DNA of 57,956 nt, taken from a virus. Lineage: Duplodnaviria; Caudoviricetes. Location: IMG/VR virus record IMGVR_UViG_3300038428_000087, positions 1 through 57,956 of that record. One strand, 5' to 3'. The position numbers were made by a program, and so were the translations under genes. Positions 30,810-57,199 of this stretch are shown piece after piece; positions within the stretch are counted from its first letter, which is position 1, and each line of letters begins with the position of its first letter. The notes beneath the pieces were generated by a model that worked only from the letters and a program-made list of their open reading frames with translations, was not told where the DNA came from and ran no database searches.

Positions 30810-31868
30810 ATGACAACACCCTCACTGCTAACGTTTACCATATCCAACCCAAACCCCGCCATTAATCAGAGCTTCGTATTTGGGGGGGCGTTAACTGACA
30901 ACGAAGGCAATCCAGAGTGGGGAAGCCGGGTTATTACCATTTACAAAATAGTATCGGGCAGTAATGATGTAATAGGCACAGTTAGCACAGACTCAAATTC
31001 AAGCACGTACCAGTTTCTATGGAGTGAGTCAAGTTATGGAAACTTCACTTATTATGCCTACTTTGCAGGTGATGATGTATACGGAGCTGCGACGAGCGAA
31101 ACGATCTTAGTATCAATACCAGAGCCAGTTGTAGTACAAACAACCCCATTAATTTCAGATTATACATTCGAGCTCCATAGGTGGAACTGGACTAATAAAA
31201 GCACCGATAACCCATTTGGTACTGCTGAATACCTGGGAACGCTCGATAAACGCACAGTTCCGTACCTCTCGCGTGAGCTTGGACTTGCTGATTCTTTAAC
31301 GTTTAACCTACCCTTAGACGACCCGAAATACTTGTGGTTTTTAGACAACCCGCCTGGAAACACGATCGGACTAGAAGTATGGTATTATGGGCGCGATAAG
31401 AACCTAAAACAAATCTTTGTTCCCGTTTCAGATGAACCATATAGAGATTACGGAGCGACTTCTACAGGCTCAGGATCGGGTTCGTTAGGATCAGGGAGTG
31501 GTGATTGGGCGTTAATAACGTGCGACGGGCCGGAATCATATCTGACTCGTTATATCACTCAGAATTATAAAGTATCTCAAAGACTCGTAAGCGACATTCT
31601 ATTAGATATTACAGCCGAAATAAGGAAAGACGGCTTGATTTATTGGTGTAACGTTGACCCGTCGCTTAATATGCTGATTGATATTGACCTCTCATGGGAA
31701 AACCTACAGACCGCCGTTGGCAATGTGATAACACAAGTCGGCGGGTATATGCAAGTTCAAATGGAGTACGGCAACCCACTACACCGTGACCTTAACCTGA
31801 TGCCAATTCCAGGACAACTACCACAACCAACTGACACAGGAACAACCTCGGCGGTGTTGCCACAATGA
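30810..31868 (+). CDS. Tail tip (Tal-like) protein, N-terminal half, with an N-terminal Ig-like domain
   Basis: RELGLADSLTFNLPLDDPK..ITCDG..L resembles the N-terminus of prophage tail-spike proteins. Confidence 0.6.
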   Translation: MTTPSLLTFTISNPNPAINQSFVFGGALTDNEGNPEWGSRVITIYKIVSGSNDVIGTVSTDSNSSTYQFLWSESSYGNFTYYAYFAGDDVYGAATSETILVSIPEPVVVQTTPLISDYTFELHRWNWTNKSTDNPFGTAEYLGTLDKRTVPYLSRELGLADSLTFNLPLDDPKYLWFLDNPPGNTIGLEVWYYGRDKNLKQIFVPVSDEPYRDYGATSTGSGSGSLGSGSGDWALITCDGPESYLTRYITQNYKVSQRLVSDILLDITAEIRKDGLIYWCNVDPSLNMLIDIDLSWENLQTAVGNVITQVGGYMQVQMEYGNPLHRDLNLMPIPGQLPQPTDTGTTSAVLPQ

Positions 31869-34466: not shown

Positions 34467-36461
34467 ATGCCAATAGACCTTAGCAACTGGAAAGGCACGC
34501 GGGGCGCATTACCGAGCCCGTATGATCCGAGCGACCCCGTATTTCCCAATATCACCGCTGAACAGGCTGCGGCTCTGCCATCGTCAGTAGATCTCCGGCA
34601 CTATGACTCTCCAATCCGAAACCAAGATGGAGTGGGGTGCTGCGTGGCAGCAGCGTCGTGTGGCGTATTTGAATGGCTGGTACGTTATCTAGAACCGTCG
34701 GCGTGGTTTAAGACCAGCATGCTTGCTATTTATTATTGGGCTCGGGCGCTTGACGGCATGCAGAACACAGACGGCGGTACATATCCAAAATCAGCGATTG
34801 TAGCTATGACTAATACCGGGATGGCGCACGACTCGTTATGGCCGTTTGGGTCAGAAGTAAACTGCAACTCAGGCGTTGCGTATCCTAAACCTACGAATGT
34901 TAACACGGCACCCACTTCTGCTGTTACCACTGACGCAGCTAAGAATAAAGTAACGAAAAGCGTTAGCGTGGCGACGGGAACAACGATAGCAGGCAGCGGG
35001 GATAGTGTAATTACTGTGATGGGGCTAGACGATGCAAAAAACGCGATTGCTTCTGGCTACCCTGTCATGTTTATACTTTGTGCAGATGAATATGATGGCC
35101 TTATGAACACATCTATTAAATCAGGACAATCGTATGGGTTGATTCCAAACTTATCAGACTGGACAAAATCACCAGACCACGGGCAGATTGTAATGGGCTA
35201 CGATGATTCGATCACGAACCTTGATAGCTCAACAGGCGCGTTTATCGTAAAAAACTCGTGGTCTACTATGTGGGGCGATTGTGTATCCGGAGACACAAAA
35301 ATCCCGCTACTATCTGGAAAAGATGTACCCATCAGGTCTCTATTAAACGCTGCGCCGTTCTGGGTCTACGCGTATGATACTGACCGAAAGAAGATAGTCC
35401 CAGCGCAAGCGACCGCATGCAAACGTGCACATAAAAACGTTCCGACTGTAACCGTGTATCTCGACAACGATGAACATATCACATGCACGCCGGATCATCC
35501 TTTTTTGTTGCGAGACGGGACATATAAAAAAGCGGAAAAACTCAACGAGGGGGATTCTCTTATGCCGTTCTATCGTTCTTATGACAAAGACGGCTATACA
35601 AAAATCGCGTGTAACAGTACCTTCTCATGGGTACGCGCACACTGGATGATAGCCCGTGAGATGCGGATGTTTGAGGAACACAAAGGACGTGCAGTTATCC
35701 ACCATATTAATTTTGATAAAACAGATAACACACCAGAAAACCTTTTGGTAATGTCGCCAGAAGCACATTCAAGTTACCACTCACAACTCAAAGATAATAC
35801 ACCGATACTAGAAGCTTGGAACCGGAATTATGACAAATTGGTGAAAAATTCTATTAAAAACATCACCGGATATAACGAGCGCCTTAAAAACGGCGAAGTA
35901 GAGATTACAGAGCGGCAGCGGGAAGCGCGACGGAGAAATGCTATCACCCTAAACAAGAGTGGTACTCCAGAAGAAAGAAGTGAAAAAGCCGAACGTGCAG
36001 CGGTCACTAGGAAAAAGAGGGGGCCCGCTGCGTATGCTGGATGCGGGGTATACGAAAGAACTGAAGCACAGTCGAAACAAGCACGTGAAATGTGCTCGAA
36101 ACTTGCAGAGTATAGATGGTACAAAAATGCGGAGTCTGAACCACTATCATATAATGAGTGGGCCGCGACGTATAATCATAAAGTCTTGAAAGTAGAACGT
36201 CACGAGCGAATAGACACCTATGATATATGTGTGCCACGTTACCGCAACTTTGCTACTTCTGCGGGAGTATTCATACATAATTCCGGATACGGCTACCTTC
36301 CGTACGCGTACGCGAACAACAGTGCGATGTACGACGGGTGGATTATCACCGGAGAATCTGAGATCGTTGTACCGACACCTACACCTACGCCTGGTGGCGG
36401 GGGAGCTCCGAATGTAAACATCAACGTAGAGATACGAACCTATCAACCGGGGAATGAATAA
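34467..36461 (+). CDS. Papain-like C1 peptidase interrupted by an intein, with C-terminal tag
   Basis: LPSSVDLR, NQDGVGCC, DHGQ, KNSW..WGD|intein|SGYGYLPY; ends APNVNINVEIRTYQPGNE. Confidence 0.88.
   Translation: MPIDLSNWKGTRGALPSPYDPSDPVFPNITAEQAAALPSSVDLRHYDSPIRNQDGVGCCVAAASCGVFEWLVRYLEPSAWFKTSMLAIYYWARALDGMQNTDGGTYPKSAIVAMTNTGMAHDSLWPFGSEVNCNSGVAYPKPTNVNTAPTSAVTTDAAKNKVTKSVSVATGTTIAGSGDSVITVMGLDDAKNAIASGYPVMFILCADEYDGLMNTSIKSGQSYGLIPNLSDWTKSPDHGQIVMGYDDSITNLDSSTGAFIVKNSWSTMWGDCVSGDTKIPLLSGKDVPIRSLLNAAPFWVYAYDTDRKKIVPAQATACKRAHKNVPTVTVYLDNDEHITCTPDHPFLLRDGTYKKAEKLNEGDSLMPFYRSYDKDGYTKIACNSTFSWVRAHWMIAREMRMFEEHKGRAVIHHINFDKTDNTPENLLVMSPEAHSSYHSQLKDNTPILEAWNRNYDKLVKNSIKNITGYNERLKNGEVEITERQREARRRNAITLNKSGTPEERSEKAERAAVTRKKRGPAAYAGCGVYERTEAQSKQAREMCSKLAEYRWYKNAESEPLSYNEWAATYNHKVLKVERHERIDTYDICVPRYRNFATSAGVFIHNSGYGYLPYAYANNSAMYDGWIITGESEIVVPTPTPTPGGGGAPNVNINVEIRTYQPGNE
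35280..36281 (+). mobile_element. Intein (334 aa) with an HNH-type homing endonuclease domain
   Basis: Block A CVSGDTKI, block B TCTPDHPF, block F TYDICV, block G FIHN followed by Ser; internal HHINFDKTDN.PENL..H. Confidence 0.92.
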
Positions 36462-37384
36462 TGATCGGGGGACCAAGACCACCACCTGAGCAGGGCGGAG
36501 TGGGGGCTTCATCACAGTATCTAATCTACAAGTTTGCTCAAGACTCAACAACTATCACCAACTCGGGTAGTGGTGGAGACACATATAATGGAACGGCAGC
36601 ACGCGCTCAGTACCAAAAAGATTCTGTTGGGTATCCTATATGGGGACCCATGAACGCAAATACAGACGGGATACGGGTAGCGGGTGGAATTAATAACCCG
36701 TACCAGCACACATGGCAGGTTGGGCTTAATATAAACCAGTGGTGGCCCGGTCGCGGTCTAGGTTCGGATGGGTATCAGGATGGAAACGATGGGAAGTTAT
36801 TAGCTGCTGGGGGAAACCAATTCTATATGTATTTTCATGGTGTATCTGATGGCGTCCTCGGCGGCCCAAACTGTGCGCCCGCGACAGCAGGCACCTACAA
36901 TTTCACTGTCGAAGGCACTGGCATGAGCGGGGGTAACGATGCTGTTCAGTTGTGGCTTGGTGTAGAAGATGCAAAACCTGTTCAAATATCATGTTCAGGC
37001 CCAAACCCTGATGGCGCAAGGTTATATTGGGTGTTCGACTACAGCTTCCAGCTACATACCAACTATTATCTTCAGATTACAGTAAACAGCAGTGGAGTTG
37101 ACCTTTCTGCAGGATATTCTCTAAGTAACTGTATTGATACTGGTTCGCCGTGTTCGGACTCGTGTATAACTGGCTTTCCATCGGGCTGCTATTTTTATGT
37201 GTGGCGAGAGGATAACACAGTCTTAGATTTATCCAGTGGTGGTAACTGGGCTGATGATGTCGTTTTATGGAAAGGCGGGGGCCCTGGACCTAGCCCTACA
37301 CCAGGACCGACACCCACACCAGGCACAGCACCGAACGTAAACATGAACGTGAGTGTGAGAGAATGGCAACCAGGGAACGAATAA
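36461..37384 (+). CDS. Gly-rich beta-domain payload protein with C-terminal tag
   Basis: Ends (PT)n-GTAPNVNMNVSVREWQPGNE, the same tag as the two upstream genes. Confidence 0.7.
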   Translation: MIGGPRPPPEQGGVGASSQYLIYKFAQDSTTITNSGSGGDTYNGTAARAQYQKDSVGYPIWGPMNANTDGIRVAGGINNPYQHTWQVGLNINQWWPGRGLGSDGYQDGNDGKLLAAGGNQFYMYFHGVSDGVLGGPNCAPATAGTYNFTVEGTGMSGGNDAVQLWLGVEDAKPVQISCSGPNPDGARLYWVFDYSFQLHTNYYLQITVNSSGVDLSAGYSLSNCIDTGSPCSDSCITGFPSGCYFYVWREDNTVLDLSSGGNWADDVVLWKGGGPGPSPTPGPTPTPGTAPNVNMNVSVREWQPGNE

Positions 37385-38204: not shown

Positions 38205-38534
38205 ATGACAACCTATACAGCAGCAACAAGCAACCTGGTTAACGTAGATGTCGTTGTTCCGTCAGTGGTTACGCAGCTCACCGCAGTTGCAAGCGTATCA
38301 ACGGCAAACGTAAATGAAGTATTTGAGGTTTCAGGCGTGCTCACGGCAGCCGACGGTTCTATACCAGTGAACCAGACTATTCAGTTGCAGATGCAGCAAA
38401 CGGATGGAACCTTTGCAGACGTAAGTGGTGCAACTGGCGCAACCGACGAGACCGGGGCATACACGATTCCGGTATCTGAGATAACCGCAGCCGTGTATGG
38501 ATTCCAAACTACCTACGCCGGAGGTTCAGCATGA
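38205..38534 (+). CDS. Circularly permuted Ig-like domain protein
   Basis: Strong GGAGGTG RBS; begins with the strand YTAATSNLVNVDV and ends at FQTTYAGGSA. Confidence 0.75.
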   Translation: MTTYTAATSNLVNVDVVVPSVVTQLTAVASVSTANVNEVFEVSGVLTAADGSIPVNQTIQLQMQQTDGTFADVSGATGATDETGAYTIPVSEITAAVYGFQTTYAGGSA

Positions 38535-38647
38535 ACGAAGAAGAGTGGCACCACCATCACCACAAGCATAAAAGATACTACGAACCTTCAACGAGTAGAA
38601 TCGTACGGGTGCTTGTAACCAAGAAGCACCATCACTGGAGAGAATAA
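38531..38647 (+). CDS. 38-aa His-rich peptide carrying an Ig terminal-strand motif
   Basis: ATGA overlap with the upstream stop and a GGAGG RBS. Translation: MNEEEWHHHHHKHKRYYEPSTSRIVRVLVTKKHHHWRE. Confidence 0.65.
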   Translation: MNEEEWHHHHHKHKRYYEPSTSRIVRVLVTKKHHHWRE

Positions 38648-38696
38648 AATTTAAGGAGGTGTTATAATAGACGCAAATACGATAAACTTTATTTCT

Positions 38697-38942
38697 GTGT
38701 TCGTCGGCGTCATATTGGGTATTGTCCTTACGCAGTTAATGGTCGATGTAAGTCCGATGATCCATAAGATAGTGATCTCTGTAATGGCCGTTCTCGCCGT
38801 TATGGGTTCGCTCGCAACCGGCGGATCGGTAGTAATTCCAGCGTTCTTCTCTTCGCTCATCGTCGGTTATGTTGCCGGTGTGACGTTTGAGACGAACGGA
38901 GCTATGGTCCAACTGCGTAAGCAGTTAGCAAAGAAAGAATAG
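38697..38942 (+). CDS. Multi-pass small membrane protein (holin-like); true start may be ATA at 38667
   Basis: About three hydrophobic segments and a basic C-terminus; GGAGGTG at 38655-38661. Confidence 0.6.
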   Translation: MFVGVILGIVLTQLMVDVSPMIHKIVISVMAVLAVMGSLATGGSVVIPAFFSSLIVGYVAGVTFETNGAMVQLRKQLAKKE

Positions 38943-38947
38943 CGATA

Positions 38948-38990
38948 TTCTTTCACTCTTTTTCTTTTTTAACCACCTTATTTTTTATAC
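38948..38990 (+). terminator. Archaeal-type T-tract terminator of the late operon
   Basis: Several T runs directly after the last structural/lysis gene. Confidence 0.55.
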
Positions 38991-39380
38991 TATTAAGTCA
39001 ATCCTTTAGTTTGCAGAAGGAACATCTGCTGGGCGCGCTGGCGGGGCGCGTGTAGGATTAACGGTATGATTCCAGCTTTGGAACGCCCTCTCTGGGTCCG
39101 GACGCGGGGCAGGCACCAGTTGGATAATGCCGCGAAGACTACAACCAGGTACCCCAAATCCTCGCCTACGCTCACTTTCTCACCTATCCTTTATACCACA
39201 ACTCTACCCCTTTCAGCGTTGCTTTTCAATTCAAGCCCACTGCGTAGAGTAAACGCGTTTTTAAACATCGTATATATACTTGAGGCCGCTCTTTAGTGGG
39301 TTGCTCGTATCTTTGTCGCGTTGACGCTACAATTTACGTACGATACCTATTAATAGTATTATAGTGTATTACATATTGTT

Positions 39381-39506
39381 ATGTTAACTAAGAGTGAAAA
39401 GACGATGATACAGGTAAGCAAGAAAACGAGGGAAGAGCTGCATGCGATTGGCAAGAAAGGCGAGTCGTATGATACTATTATCCGCCGTTTGCTAAGAGGT
39501 GAATGA
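39381..39506 (+). CDS. Small archaeal-type ribbon-helix-helix protein (41 aa)
   Basis: MLTKSEKTMIQVSKKTREELHAIGKKGESYDTIIRRLLRGE; TATA-like CTATTAATAG about 30 nt upstream. Confidence 0.7.
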   Translation: MLTKSEKTMIQVSKKTREELHAIGKKGESYDTIIRRLLRGE

Positions 39507-40063
39507 AAATGAAACAAATTGTAATCTTTGGAGTTATCGCACTCATCATCTGCGCCATAGGAATAGCTGGCTGCACAACCCAAATCCCCGCACCAAATAA
39601 CCAGTTGAACACGACTAATGTTACTACGACTTCCGCTGTTTCTAAAGCCGTTGTTACACCTACGCCTACTGTTGTAGCCACGCCAACGCCAACAGTGACA
39701 CCTTTACCTACTCCTATACCTACACCTATACCTTCGCCTTTACCTACCCCGATAACGCCTACCGTGATGGGAATAAGCATGATGCCCGTTGCAGTCATCC
39801 AAGGAGAACCGATCGCTTTTACTACCTGGGTAAACGCTAACGGCCACGCAGTTCCGAACCTACCAATCAACTGCTACGTGGATGGTGTGTTTATAGGAAC
39901 GGTATCTTCCGCTAATGGTTACGCACAATTTACCACGGGATCATTGAACGTGCCGCTTGGTACTGTTACGGTAACGGCGTCGTTCGCTGGAAATAGTCAG
40001 TACGGTGCATCAAGTCAAGGTGGAAGCTTTAAGTTGGTAGTAGATTTGAACGCCACCAGATGA
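39503..40063 (+). CDS. Lipoprotein with PT linker and Ig-like domain
   Basis: Signal peptide with lipobox-like IAGC, Thr/Pro linker, C-terminal SFAGNSQYGASS. Confidence 0.8.
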   Translation: MKMKQIVIFGVIALIICAIGIAGCTTQIPAPNNQLNTTNVTTTSAVSKAVVTPTPTVVATPTPTVTPLPTPIPTPIPSPLPTPITPTVMGISMMPVAVIQGEPIAFTTWVNANGHAVPNLPINCYVDGVFIGTVSSANGYAQFTTGSLNVPLGTVTVTASFAGNSQYGASSQGGSFKLVVDLNATR

Positions 40064-56047: not shown

Positions 56048-57199
56048 ATGGAGGCTAAAATGGCTACACAAAAGATGGTCTACGGGGTTGCCGCTTCAAG
56101 CGACACAAACCCAACACCGTATAAACTAAAAAGGGTGTCAACGACGCCAGTACCGCAACCTACGCTGGCAAAGTCAATCGCGCCACTAAAAGCGCAAGGT
56201 ATAGAAGATTTCTTACAAGTCGTTGCTGACGGAGCGTATCCAGATTCATCGTTTATCTCAGACTGTAAAACAAATGGGGTAACGTGTGGAATAAACAACA
56301 GCAATGACGGAACTAGCTCAAACTGGTCTTTAGCATATTACCAAGCCCTTGCTGCTCAAGGCGTGCAGTGGGCAATCGGAGAATCAGAAAGTGGTGGCGA
56401 GATGTGCGCTATGATGCAGGCAGCGCCAGGGAAACTTGTAGCGGGTACGTATGGTGGCGAGGGGACCGGGGGGCCCACAGGTAATAATGACATCTGGAGT
56501 GGGAATAACCTCACGCCAACGTGTACTATTGCTAAAGGCACAATAAACGCTTGGCTCGAAACATACACAAGCAGTGCAATGCTCAGCGCAAGTGAAATAG
56601 GAACGGAGGCAGCTATCAATAAGGACGCTGGCTGCTTTGAGGTTGGTCTTTTACCCGGAACATGGTGCGAGGCCGACTATGGTGCTACAGCAGAGACGTA
56701 TCTTGAGATGGTCGATGCGATGAAATCACAAGGAGTTACCTGCGCTGGGGTTCAGATGTGGTACTATCAAGGTGGTTTCGCATATCCAGATATTTTCACA
56801 GGTTTGATGGCAGAATATCCAGCTAACATGACGCCCATACTACAAAGAGCGAGTGGGACACCGACACCGACACCCACACCACCGACGCCCGATCCAGCAG
56901 TAGCAACACAATGCTTCCTAACCGTAGACAATGCAAACCCGAAGGTAAACGCTCCGGTAACGTTTACTGCTACAGTAATGAGCAACGGCAAAGAGATTCC
57001 AGTCCCCGTTACAGTTTACCATTACCTCAACGGAATCAAATACATCGACGCTCCAAGTAAAGCGGTTCTAAACTCTTTCTCAACGCTGACCTTCCAGACA
57101 ACGTTTACGACAGCAGATCCGAGACCATACTATATGTCATTCGCCGGAAATGCTCAGTATAAAGCTTCAAACGCACCATTGGGTGTGAACGTGCAGTGA
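56048..57199 (+). CDS. Putative GH-like protein with PT linker and C-terminal Ig-like domain
   Basis: N-terminal domain is paralogous to 33648; the Ig domain is closely similar to that of the 57585-1036 peptidase. Confidence 0.7.
   Translation: MEAKMATQKMVYGVAASSDTNPTPYKLKRVSTTPVPQPTLAKSIAPLKAQGIEDFLQVVADGAYPDSSFISDCKTNGVTCGINNSNDGTSSNWSLAYYQALAAQGVQWAIGESESGGEMCAMMQAAPGKLVAGTYGGEGTGGPTGNNDIWSGNNLTPTCTIAKGTINAWLETYTSSAMLSASEIGTEAAINKDAGCFEVGLLPGTWCEADYGATAETYLEMVDAMKSQGVTCAGVQMWYYQGGFAYPDIFTGLMAEYPANMTPILQRASGTPTPTPTPPTPDPAVATQCFLTVDNANPKVNAPVTFTATVMSNGKEIPVPVTVYHYLNGIKYIDAPSKAVLNSFSTLTFQTTFTTADPRPYYMSFAGNAQYKASNAPLGVNVQ

Follow-up and report, generated by a model that had tools for sequence, protein, structure and literature searches.

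In chaperone–usher pilins, such as those of type 1 and P pili and Caf1, an immunoglobulin (Ig)-like subunit lacks its last (G) strand, carries a donor strand at its N terminus and has its groove filled in trans, and a donor-only partner fills that groove ahead of the next subunit or in its stead. Among described systems, donor-strand complementation occurs in secreted pili and in matrix fibres, with the strand coming from a full-size chaperone or from a neighbouring subunit. In the engineered SpyTag/SpyCatcher pair, made by splitting CnaB2, an Ig-like domain without its C-terminal strand and a 13-residue strand peptide likewise rebuild the fold in trans. Here we analyze two overlapping open reading frames, ORF1 and ORF2, of the virus record IMGVR_UViG_3300038428_000087 (Duplodnaviria; Caudoviricetes), a complete IMG/VR record whose 57,956 bases we refer to as the window. 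The reading that we favour, with modest confidence, is that ORF1 and ORF2 form a translationally coupled, two-gene split Ig module, in which ORF2 finishes the fold of ORF1 and the N-terminal strand of ORF1 may link copies head to tail.

The resemblance of ORF1 to the pilins (no G strand of its own, and a donor-type strand at the N terminus) is one of architecture only, with no relation in sequence. The differences are considerable: ORF1 is leaderless by inspection, so that any assembly would be cytoplasmic or follow lysis; the donor-only partner is a peptide of 38–47 amino acids (aa) rather than a two-domain chaperone; and the fold comes from the Big_3_5/Big_1 array family rather than from pilins. 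Neither the PapD-like chaperone (PF00345) nor the usher (PF00577) gave any match in the complete 57,956-base record, in a search in which control genomes did match. Since its subunit is leaderless and neither of these genes is present in the virus, the pair is not a chaperone–usher system, although it may work like one. SpyTag/SpyCatcher, to which we liken the pair by analogy only, is man-made and locked by an isopeptide bond, whereas the ORF1/ORF2 split is natural and gene-encoded, with no evident isopeptide triad. Clear homology connects ORF1 to the tandem Big_3_5/CarboxypepD_reg/Big_1 arrays of surface proteins (P0021 and P0022 in our set), in which, unlike ORF1, every domain has its G strand in cis and the loop between strands F and G mostly reads GD or GN rather than GG.

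In having a donor-only partner encoded beside the subunit, the locus also agrees with donor-strand filaments that assemble free of chaperones (archaeal threads, TasA, cannulae). Saci_0406 forms archaeal threads by head-to-tail donor-strand complementation with no known chaperone, and its co-transcribed neighbour Saci_0405 is a proposed strand donor without an acceptor site, and thus a cap (PMC9715654). Those threads are secreted, glycosylated cell appendages with solved structures, and Saci_0405, as the proposed cap, is a full pilin-like protein produced at a lower level (PMC9715654), whereas ORF2 is a bare strand with His tracts, is translationally coupled and belongs to a virus. In Bacillus subtilis, the N-terminal strand of each TasA protomer is reported to intercalate into the next beta-sandwich and TapA to donate a strand by donor-strand complementation, a role for TapA beyond initiation being considered unlikely (PMC10151520). 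TapA differs from ORF2 in being a complete Ig-fold protein that acts outside the cell; TasA, in contrast to ORF1, is no phase-shifted array unit, and His tracts are absent from that system. A limited literature search found no viral or peptide-only case of strand complementation among the titles and abstracts that it returned.

Results

ORF1 as an Ig repeat unit without its last strand

ORF1 opens with MTT followed by YTAATSNLVNVDV and terminates in ...TTYAGGSA; its single chain stops right after strand F and does not hold a complete seven-strand sandwich. An earlier note on this DNA, whose coordinates and sequences for both frames agree with ours, had claimed that ORF1 lacks the last strand of the Ig fold and instead carries a strand of that type at its N terminus. 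Coverage by the Pfam models, alignment to a complete domain and scoring of the strands all bear this out. Pfam Big_1 matched ORF1 weakly (15.8 bits, with a cut-off of 34.9) and over profile positions 3–84 of 93, Big_3_5 gave no match at E ≤ 0.1, and a tail-fibre N-terminal beta-sandwich model gave a sub-threshold match. ORF1 thus did not reach the curated cut-off for Big_3_5/Big_1 (PF16640/PF02369), a shortfall that fits the missing last strand. Residues 23–107 of ORF1 are 32% identical to the C-terminal Ig (Big_3_5) domain of a 1508-aa protein with Ig domains that is also encoded in the window; that domain runs on with a G strand of its own (...FSGDDNFAGTTSAVLDITVTGA), whereas ORF1 stops at the equivalent of ...FSG. 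The motif that the earlier note had used as its reference for complete domains, YFAGDDVYGAATSETILVSI in the gene at 30810, is real, but it closes the N-terminal domain of that protein and not the whole protein.

The matrix with which we scored candidate strands drew on 131 distinct G strands that tandem-array homologues carry in cis. Residues 4–16 of ORF1 reached 27.4 bits, the best of the 32,220 13-mers in the window, and the ORF2 13-mer reached 14.7 bits, alongside 16.1 and 13.5 bits for the two clear cis G strands of the window and 8.5 bits for the next best background 13-mer. A strict regular expression, chosen post hoc and run in six frames, matched in three places only. By the matrix, both strands exceed chance and are homologues of G strands, and ORF2 is what the earlier note had taken it to be, that strand and nothing else between His/Lys tracts. 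In the two lineages with an altered ORF2 strand, that strand and the ORF1 N-terminal strand have changed alike at the same positions (D-M versus E-M in locus L015, S-T versus T-V in L014), which hints, anecdotally, that both strands are tuned to one groove.

The N-terminal strand of ORF1 is as well conserved as the core, with Y4, A7, S9, V16 and P19 invariant among 22 sequences, and the start of the gene just ahead of it is retained in single-unit homologues down to 34% identity. About 2–6 residues connect it to strand A, as at a normal junction between domains. At the other end, the representative of the ORF1 cluster (P0009) has no G-like strand in its last 25 residues.

A search of 1.84 billion representatives with an ORF1 profile built from 22 homologues found 223 proteins at E ≤ 1e-3; the counts of architectures and loops below are from the best 150 of these 223 matches, and kinship among these proteins means that the counts do not tally independent events. 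In long proteins the stretch from ORF1 profile position 2/3 to 108 is repeated head to tail (9 stretches in P0021 and 8 in P0022). The profile matched such arrays with E-values down to 1e-129, and the arrays themselves carry Big_3_5 (4.2e-38 in P0021, 3.6e-39 in P0109), so that by profile comparison ORF1 is homologous to proven Big_3_5/Big_1 members. Because the repeat of the arrays corresponds to ORF1 profile positions 2/3 to 108, ORF1 is, on this alignment, exactly one period of a tandem Ig array in a shifted phase, cut in the F–G loop: the G strand of the previous domain (G'), the junction, and strands A to F.

Nineteen of the 150 representatives end exactly after strand F, as ORF1 does, nine have an orphan G' strand at their start, in phase with ORF1, and seven share both features; the final 25 residues contain no G-like strand in any of the proteins that stop after strand F. 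This set contains single units at 34–49% identity, the 2-unit P0139, which also has the orphan G' start, and the 6-unit P0109, whose N terminus scores 12.1 bits as a G strand on the matrix. The whole module (G' plus A–F) is also found behind an unassigned 300-aa domain (P0108, P0115, P0125 and P0028) and behind a 115-aa domain (P0057 and P0098), and P0151 combines an orphan G' strand and a complete Ig domain with a hydrophobic C-terminal segment that by inspection resembles a membrane anchor. GG fills the final two positions of the loop in 12 of the 19 protein-terminal units versus 6 of the 339 internal units, in 237 of which the F–G loop reads GD or GN. In the distant members, too, GG would be consistent with a GGAGG ribosome-binding site serving a coupled gene downstream. 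Of the arguments that the strand is used head to tail, this family-level architecture is the strongest, although it is an indirect one.

Other searches added little. A sequence search of the PDB gave one match (E 0.13), a near-DNA search of known phages gave no DNA match, and a protein search of known phages gave only weak matches, to the N-terminal region of Stx-phage tail-fibre genes (E 0.3). The Protein Atlas placed ORF1 with Ig-type clusters, viral and archaeal, which we treated as a lead only. No viral contig matched when P0057 or P0111 served as a single-protein query. A DNA pattern combining the junction with the His codons found at least 119 stretches, and the loci retrieved with it (L021 onward) gave no hidden Markov model match; one of these loci, L102, is a close relative that begins inside the module and was also detected by tblastn.

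A conserved His-rich micropeptide gene coupled to ORF1

The earlier note had asked whether the pair is conserved in related viruses, and it is: ORF2 is kept in all 13 records that reach past ORF1 (the window and 12 related loci; L009 ends too early and stands outside this count), over a range of ORF1 identity from 52 to 100%. The 13 records hold 7 distinct ORF2 peptides of 38–47 aa, each record has the ATGA overlap with the ORF1 stop (GTGA in L015), and ORF2 has a Shine–Dalgarno site of its own in 13 of 13. Residues Y17, P19, S22, R23, R26, V27 and V29 are invariant among the aligned relatives, and the His tracts are longer or shorter by whole codons. The window and L001 share an identical 11-residue stretch (PSTSRIVRVLV), and over the 19-codon ORF2 core they differ at 13.5 of 14.5 synonymous sites and 9.5 of 42.5 non-synonymous sites; between the window and L003, L007 and L008 the core shows 1–4 synonymous changes and 0 non-synonymous ones. 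By these counts the ORF2 core is under strong purifying selection, and the record comparison marks ORF2 as a real, conserved and selected gene.

An ORF2 profile searched against 5.8 billion proteins found only 2 matches, both on contigs of known ORF1 homologues, and the Protein Atlas returned nothing usable for ORF2. To judge from their composition, the His tracts may bind metal, switch with pH in an acidic habitat or form a cationic binding surface. The ATGA coupling together with the separate Shine–Dalgarno site suggests roughly 1:1 synthesis of ORF1 and ORF2, and tends to favour ORF2 as a stoichiometric partner or placeholder over a rare cap. On the + strand, ORF1 and ORF2 are not separated by any promoter-like or terminator-like site in the scans made, whose counts did not exceed those of shuffled sequence, and Rfam gave no match.

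ORF2 is predicted to occupy the G position of ORF1

We predicted the complex of two ORF1 copies with ORF2 from custom alignments and scored the ORF2 contacts. The median score was 0.71 (individual runs 0.81, 0.00 and 0.71) and the best of 3 controls scored 0.01. The pass mark was calibrated on solved complexes (58 of 80 reached it) and on mismatched pairs (2 of 110), and is only roughly valid here, given the custom alignments and the three chains; at least 2% of contacts agreed between runs, with a partner pLDDT (predicted local distance difference test) of at least 32. The docking that the earlier note had envisaged for the peptide was recovered, with the ORF2 strand in the ORF1 groove in the canonical orientation. 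In the best run, ORF2 residues 13–32 contact residues 18–29 and 94–109 of one ORF1 copy: ORF1 residues 104, 102, 100 and 98 of strand F pair antiparallel with ORF2 residues 19, 22, 25 and 27, and residues 23, 25, 27 and 29 of strand A pair in parallel with ORF2 residues 18, 20, 22 and 27. Lying between A (parallel) and F (antiparallel), the ORF2 strand thus takes the position of a canonical G strand. We consider the assignment of ORF2 as the trans-supplied G strand of ORF1 to be well supported.

The ORF1 monomer was modelled with AlphaFold2 from two alignments. With 19 close homologues, residues 1–34 had a pLDDT below 50; with 33 more diverse rows, the best of five models, which ranged from 45.5 to 86.9, had residues 1–22 at 80–86 with no strand assigned there, and strands at residues 23–25, 28–29, 39–48, 58–64, 70–79, 85–91 and 100–104. 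The earlier note had counted a folding back of the N-terminal strand into a stable monomer as evidence against a filament. Neither run predicted a beta-paired fold-back, so the objection found no support in them; the pLDDT of residues 1–22 in the deeper run may nonetheless reflect a packed N terminus. A fold search of both monomer models against the PDB gave no match at E ≤ 0.001, only generic beta-sandwiches.

Possible head-to-tail linkage and its alternatives

In the arrangement that we favour, the 13-residue core of ORF2 would enter between strands A and F of ORF1 and complete the sandwich, leaving both poles of the domain with cationic His/Lys/Arg tracts. The open groove of a second ORF1 copy, or of some other protein without a G strand, would receive the free N-terminal strand of ORF1, and strand donation between ORF1 copies would yield non-covalent, head-to-tail 'tandem Ig' chains. 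ORF2, being able to donate a strand but not to accept one, would fill the groove left open at the end, as a cap or, until exchange, as a placeholder. The architecture is compatible with polymerisation through the N-terminal strand; we infer the donation of a strand from one ORF1 copy to another and the part that the pair plays in the viral cycle.

Several points weigh against this reading. Tight binding of ORF2 at about 1:1 synthesis would fill all grooves and block chains. ORF2 remained undocked in one of the three complex runs (score 0.00) and the peptide had a pLDDT of 32–65, and the complex may have passed partly through its likeness to strand-complemented Ig folds in the PDB. The complex output, which covered ORF2 contacts only, contained no ORF1–ORF1 contact, and the pLDDT of 80–86 at residues 1–22 of the monomer may reflect an ORF1 N terminus that packs back on the domain. 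ORF1 shows, by inspection, no hydrophobic leader of a Sec signal peptide, its strand starting at once (MTTY...), and the neighbours of the pair are membrane and lysis-like genes. Below 52% ORF1 identity, we infer the generality of ORF2 from the GG/Shine–Dalgarno signature only.

The alternative that survives best, somewhat unlikely in our judgement and still a serious contender, is a simple 1:1 split domain: ORF2 would always give the G strand, and the product would be a heterodimer decorated with His, Arg and Lys, for example a binding or adaptor module of a lysis-like cassette, and not a homopolymer; the N-terminal strand would then be left over from a junction, hang as a flexible tail or serve another protein as its donor. 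The coupling by ATGA (GTGA in L015) and the separate Shine–Dalgarno site, present in all 13 records, speak for this arrangement, as does the filling of the groove by ORF2 in two of three runs despite the presence of two competing N-terminal strands. Moreover, the G' strand stands behind a different N-terminal domain in P0057 and P0098 and behind non-Ig domains in P0108 and P0115, so donation to its own kind is not the only use open to it. All 7 Big_3_5 matches in the window, a genome in which Ig domains are unusually numerous, run on past strand F, and no Ig domain other than ORF1 was found there to lack a G strand, which also fits the heterodimer. What a plain heterodimer accounts for less well is the N-terminal strand, which is conserved like the core (the same five invariant residues), lies just behind a gene start maintained to 34% identity, and is retained together with the open end in 1-, 2- and 6-unit forms.

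It is quite improbable, by our estimate, that ORF1 is a circularly permuted monomer whose N-terminal strand occupies its own groove, possibly reversed, leaving ORF2 to metal binding or regulation. The pLDDT of residues 1–22 in the deeper-alignment run would agree with such a fold, as would the pLDDT of 86–87 that the ORF1 copies keep even when unrelated peptides replace ORF2. However, those residues formed no strand in either run and the five models spread from 45.5 to 86.9; a linker of 2–6 residues is, by geometry, too short for the canonical orientation parallel to strand A; and the ORF2 strand is itself a homologue of G strands and docks in the groove. That ORF2 follows directly on ORF1 in the −1 frame might suggest a decayed gene, in which a frameshift split an ordinary two-domain Ig protein or programmed −1 frameshifting rejoins the frames, but this is hardly credible given the agreement of all 13 records, at identities as low as 52%, in split, start codon and overlap, the conserved stop position in 19 representatives, the lack of a visible conserved slippery heptamer at the ORF1/ORF2 junctions of relatives, and the separate Shine–Dalgarno site and purifying selection of ORF2.

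Discussion

If ORF1 and ORF2 form the split module that we favour, the last strand of an Ig domain encoded as its own translationally coupled micro-gene would be new, a natural counterpart of engineered tag/catcher pairs. Also new would be the viral, leaderless setting, which would put any assembly in the cytoplasm, on the virion or after lysis, and the spread at the level of the family, in which the stop position of 19 of 150 representatives and the GGAGG-like GG signature suggest a coupled downstream gene. The case further illustrates that genes of fewer than 50 codons, which annotation pipelines skip, can be structurally essential. Were polymerisation to hold, the pair would be a ready-made protein-assembly module, and a self-purifying one because the ORF2 peptide carries native His tracts.

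A wider conjecture, which we think unlikely, is that the whole family assembles by strands supplied in trans: phase-shifted arrays of 1, 2 or 6 units, some fused behind enzyme-sized domains, in viruses and probably in archaeal hosts, would polymerise in a head-to-tail manner via orphan N-terminal G strands, and the His-rich peptide of 38–47 aa would be a minimal chaperone or cap that guards the groove in the cytoplasm and is exchanged or retained according to pH or metal. Donor-strand exchange would then be reduced to a single peptide and freed from secretion machinery.

We lean, tentatively, towards an archaeal host. The array homologues terminate in hydrophobic C-terminal tails, which may be archaeal-type anchors. 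One relative lies on a contig of a metagenome-assembled genome labelled Acidobacteriota, beside prophage capsid and portal genes, and of 401 Acidobacteriota genomes searched the module occurred in 1, that same labelled genome; the nearest major capsid proteins are those of bacterial siphoviruses (36–41% identity).

The locus and its neighbours

Among the products encoded in the window are the portal, a major capsid protein of the HK97 type and the tape measure protein, and every gene in the region of ORF1 and ORF2 (Table 1) runs in the direction of the + strand.

Table 1. Positions in the window of ORF1, ORF2, their parts and the adjoining genes.
Feature	Start	End	Strand	Remarks
Upstream 90-aa protein with C-terminal hydrophobic stretch, XhlA/'hemolysin'-like	37913	38185	+	phrog_1193, E 1e-4
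ORF1 Shine–Dalgarno site, GGAGGTG	38194	38200	+	Read from sequence; similar site upstream of ORF1 in 13/13 records
ORF1, 109 aa, phase-shifted Big_3_5/Big_1-type repeat unit (G' and strands A–F, no G of its own)	38205	38534	+	
ORF1 orphan N-terminal G-type strand, residues 4–16, YTAATSNLVNVDV	38214	38252	+	
ORF1 Ig core, strands A to F, about residues 20–109, ending YAGGSA	38262	38531	+	
ORF2 Shine–Dalgarno site, GGAGGT, in the ORF1 Gly-Gly codons of ...YAGGSA	38520	38525	+	5 nucleotides before the ATG
ORF2, 38 aa, His/Lys/Arg-rich	38531	38647	+	ATGA overlap with the ORF1 stop, −1 frame
ORF2 N-terminal His tract, HHHHHKH	38549	38569	+	
ORF2 strand, residues 17–29, YEPSTSRIVRVLV	38579	38617	+	Predicted trans G strand of ORF1
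ORF2 C-terminal His tract, HHH	38627	38635	+	
Downstream 81-aa hydrophobic protein	38697	38942	+	Holin-like by inspection only; kept beside ORF2 in L003, L006, L007 and L008

In relatives of the window type (L003 and L006–L008) the pair retains its position after coiled-coil and XhlA-like membrane proteins, whereas in L001 and L002 it is placed elsewhere, behind small genes that look helix-turn-helix-like by inspection. In these two loci the gene after ORF2 (L001 6480–6812, L002 3322–3678) opens with the same acidic and His/Arg-rich head (MTDEHHHH...), which is thus common to the micropeptide and a membrane protein; the rest of the product comprises a membrane helix, a long Pro/Thr-rich stretch and an end reading ...PPIPWCPY.

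The first canonical start of the 81-aa membrane gene is the GTG at 38697 (within 38655–38699). A strong AAGGAGGTG site ahead of the gene ends at 38661, and the peptide encoded by the roughly 10 codons that precede the GTG in frame is conserved in L003 and L006–L008; translation may begin at a non-canonical ATA at 38664 or 38667.

Beyond this gene, the roughly 430 bases at 38943–39380 contain no convincing open reading frame or Rfam match; they carry promoter-like hexamers on both strands and one terminator-like hairpin (39241–39257), and are probably the border between the late and the early or lysogeny modules. A 41-aa ribbon-helix-helix-like gene (39381–39506) follows and precedes a lipoprotein-like protein (39503–40063) with a leader, a Cys lipobox-like site, a Pro/Thr linker and a Big_3_5 domain, which stays near ORF1 and ORF2 in distant relatives (also L003, L008 and L015).

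Upstream, a papain-like protease (Peptidase_C1, 34467–36461), which may be the lysin of the virus, is split at residues 283–605 by an intein that carries an HNH endonuclease (Pfam Intein_splicing); its homologue in L008, a 245-aa open frame at the start of the locus, appears intein-free. The protease and the next protein (307 aa, 36461–37384) are unrelated, yet in both a Pro/Thr-rich linker leads into a near-identical tail, APNVN[I/M]NV..R..QPG.E, at about 36411–36458 and 37334–37381, which is kept in L007 and L008. Considered as alternative donor strands, these tails scored about 1 bit on the G-strand matrix and are not G-like; they could be docking or sorting tails. Near the ends of the record, two proteins (245–1036 and 56048–57199) each terminate in a complete Big_3_5-type domain (...SFAGNSTYGSSSSGLAINVA and ...SFAGNAQYKASNAPLGVNVQ).

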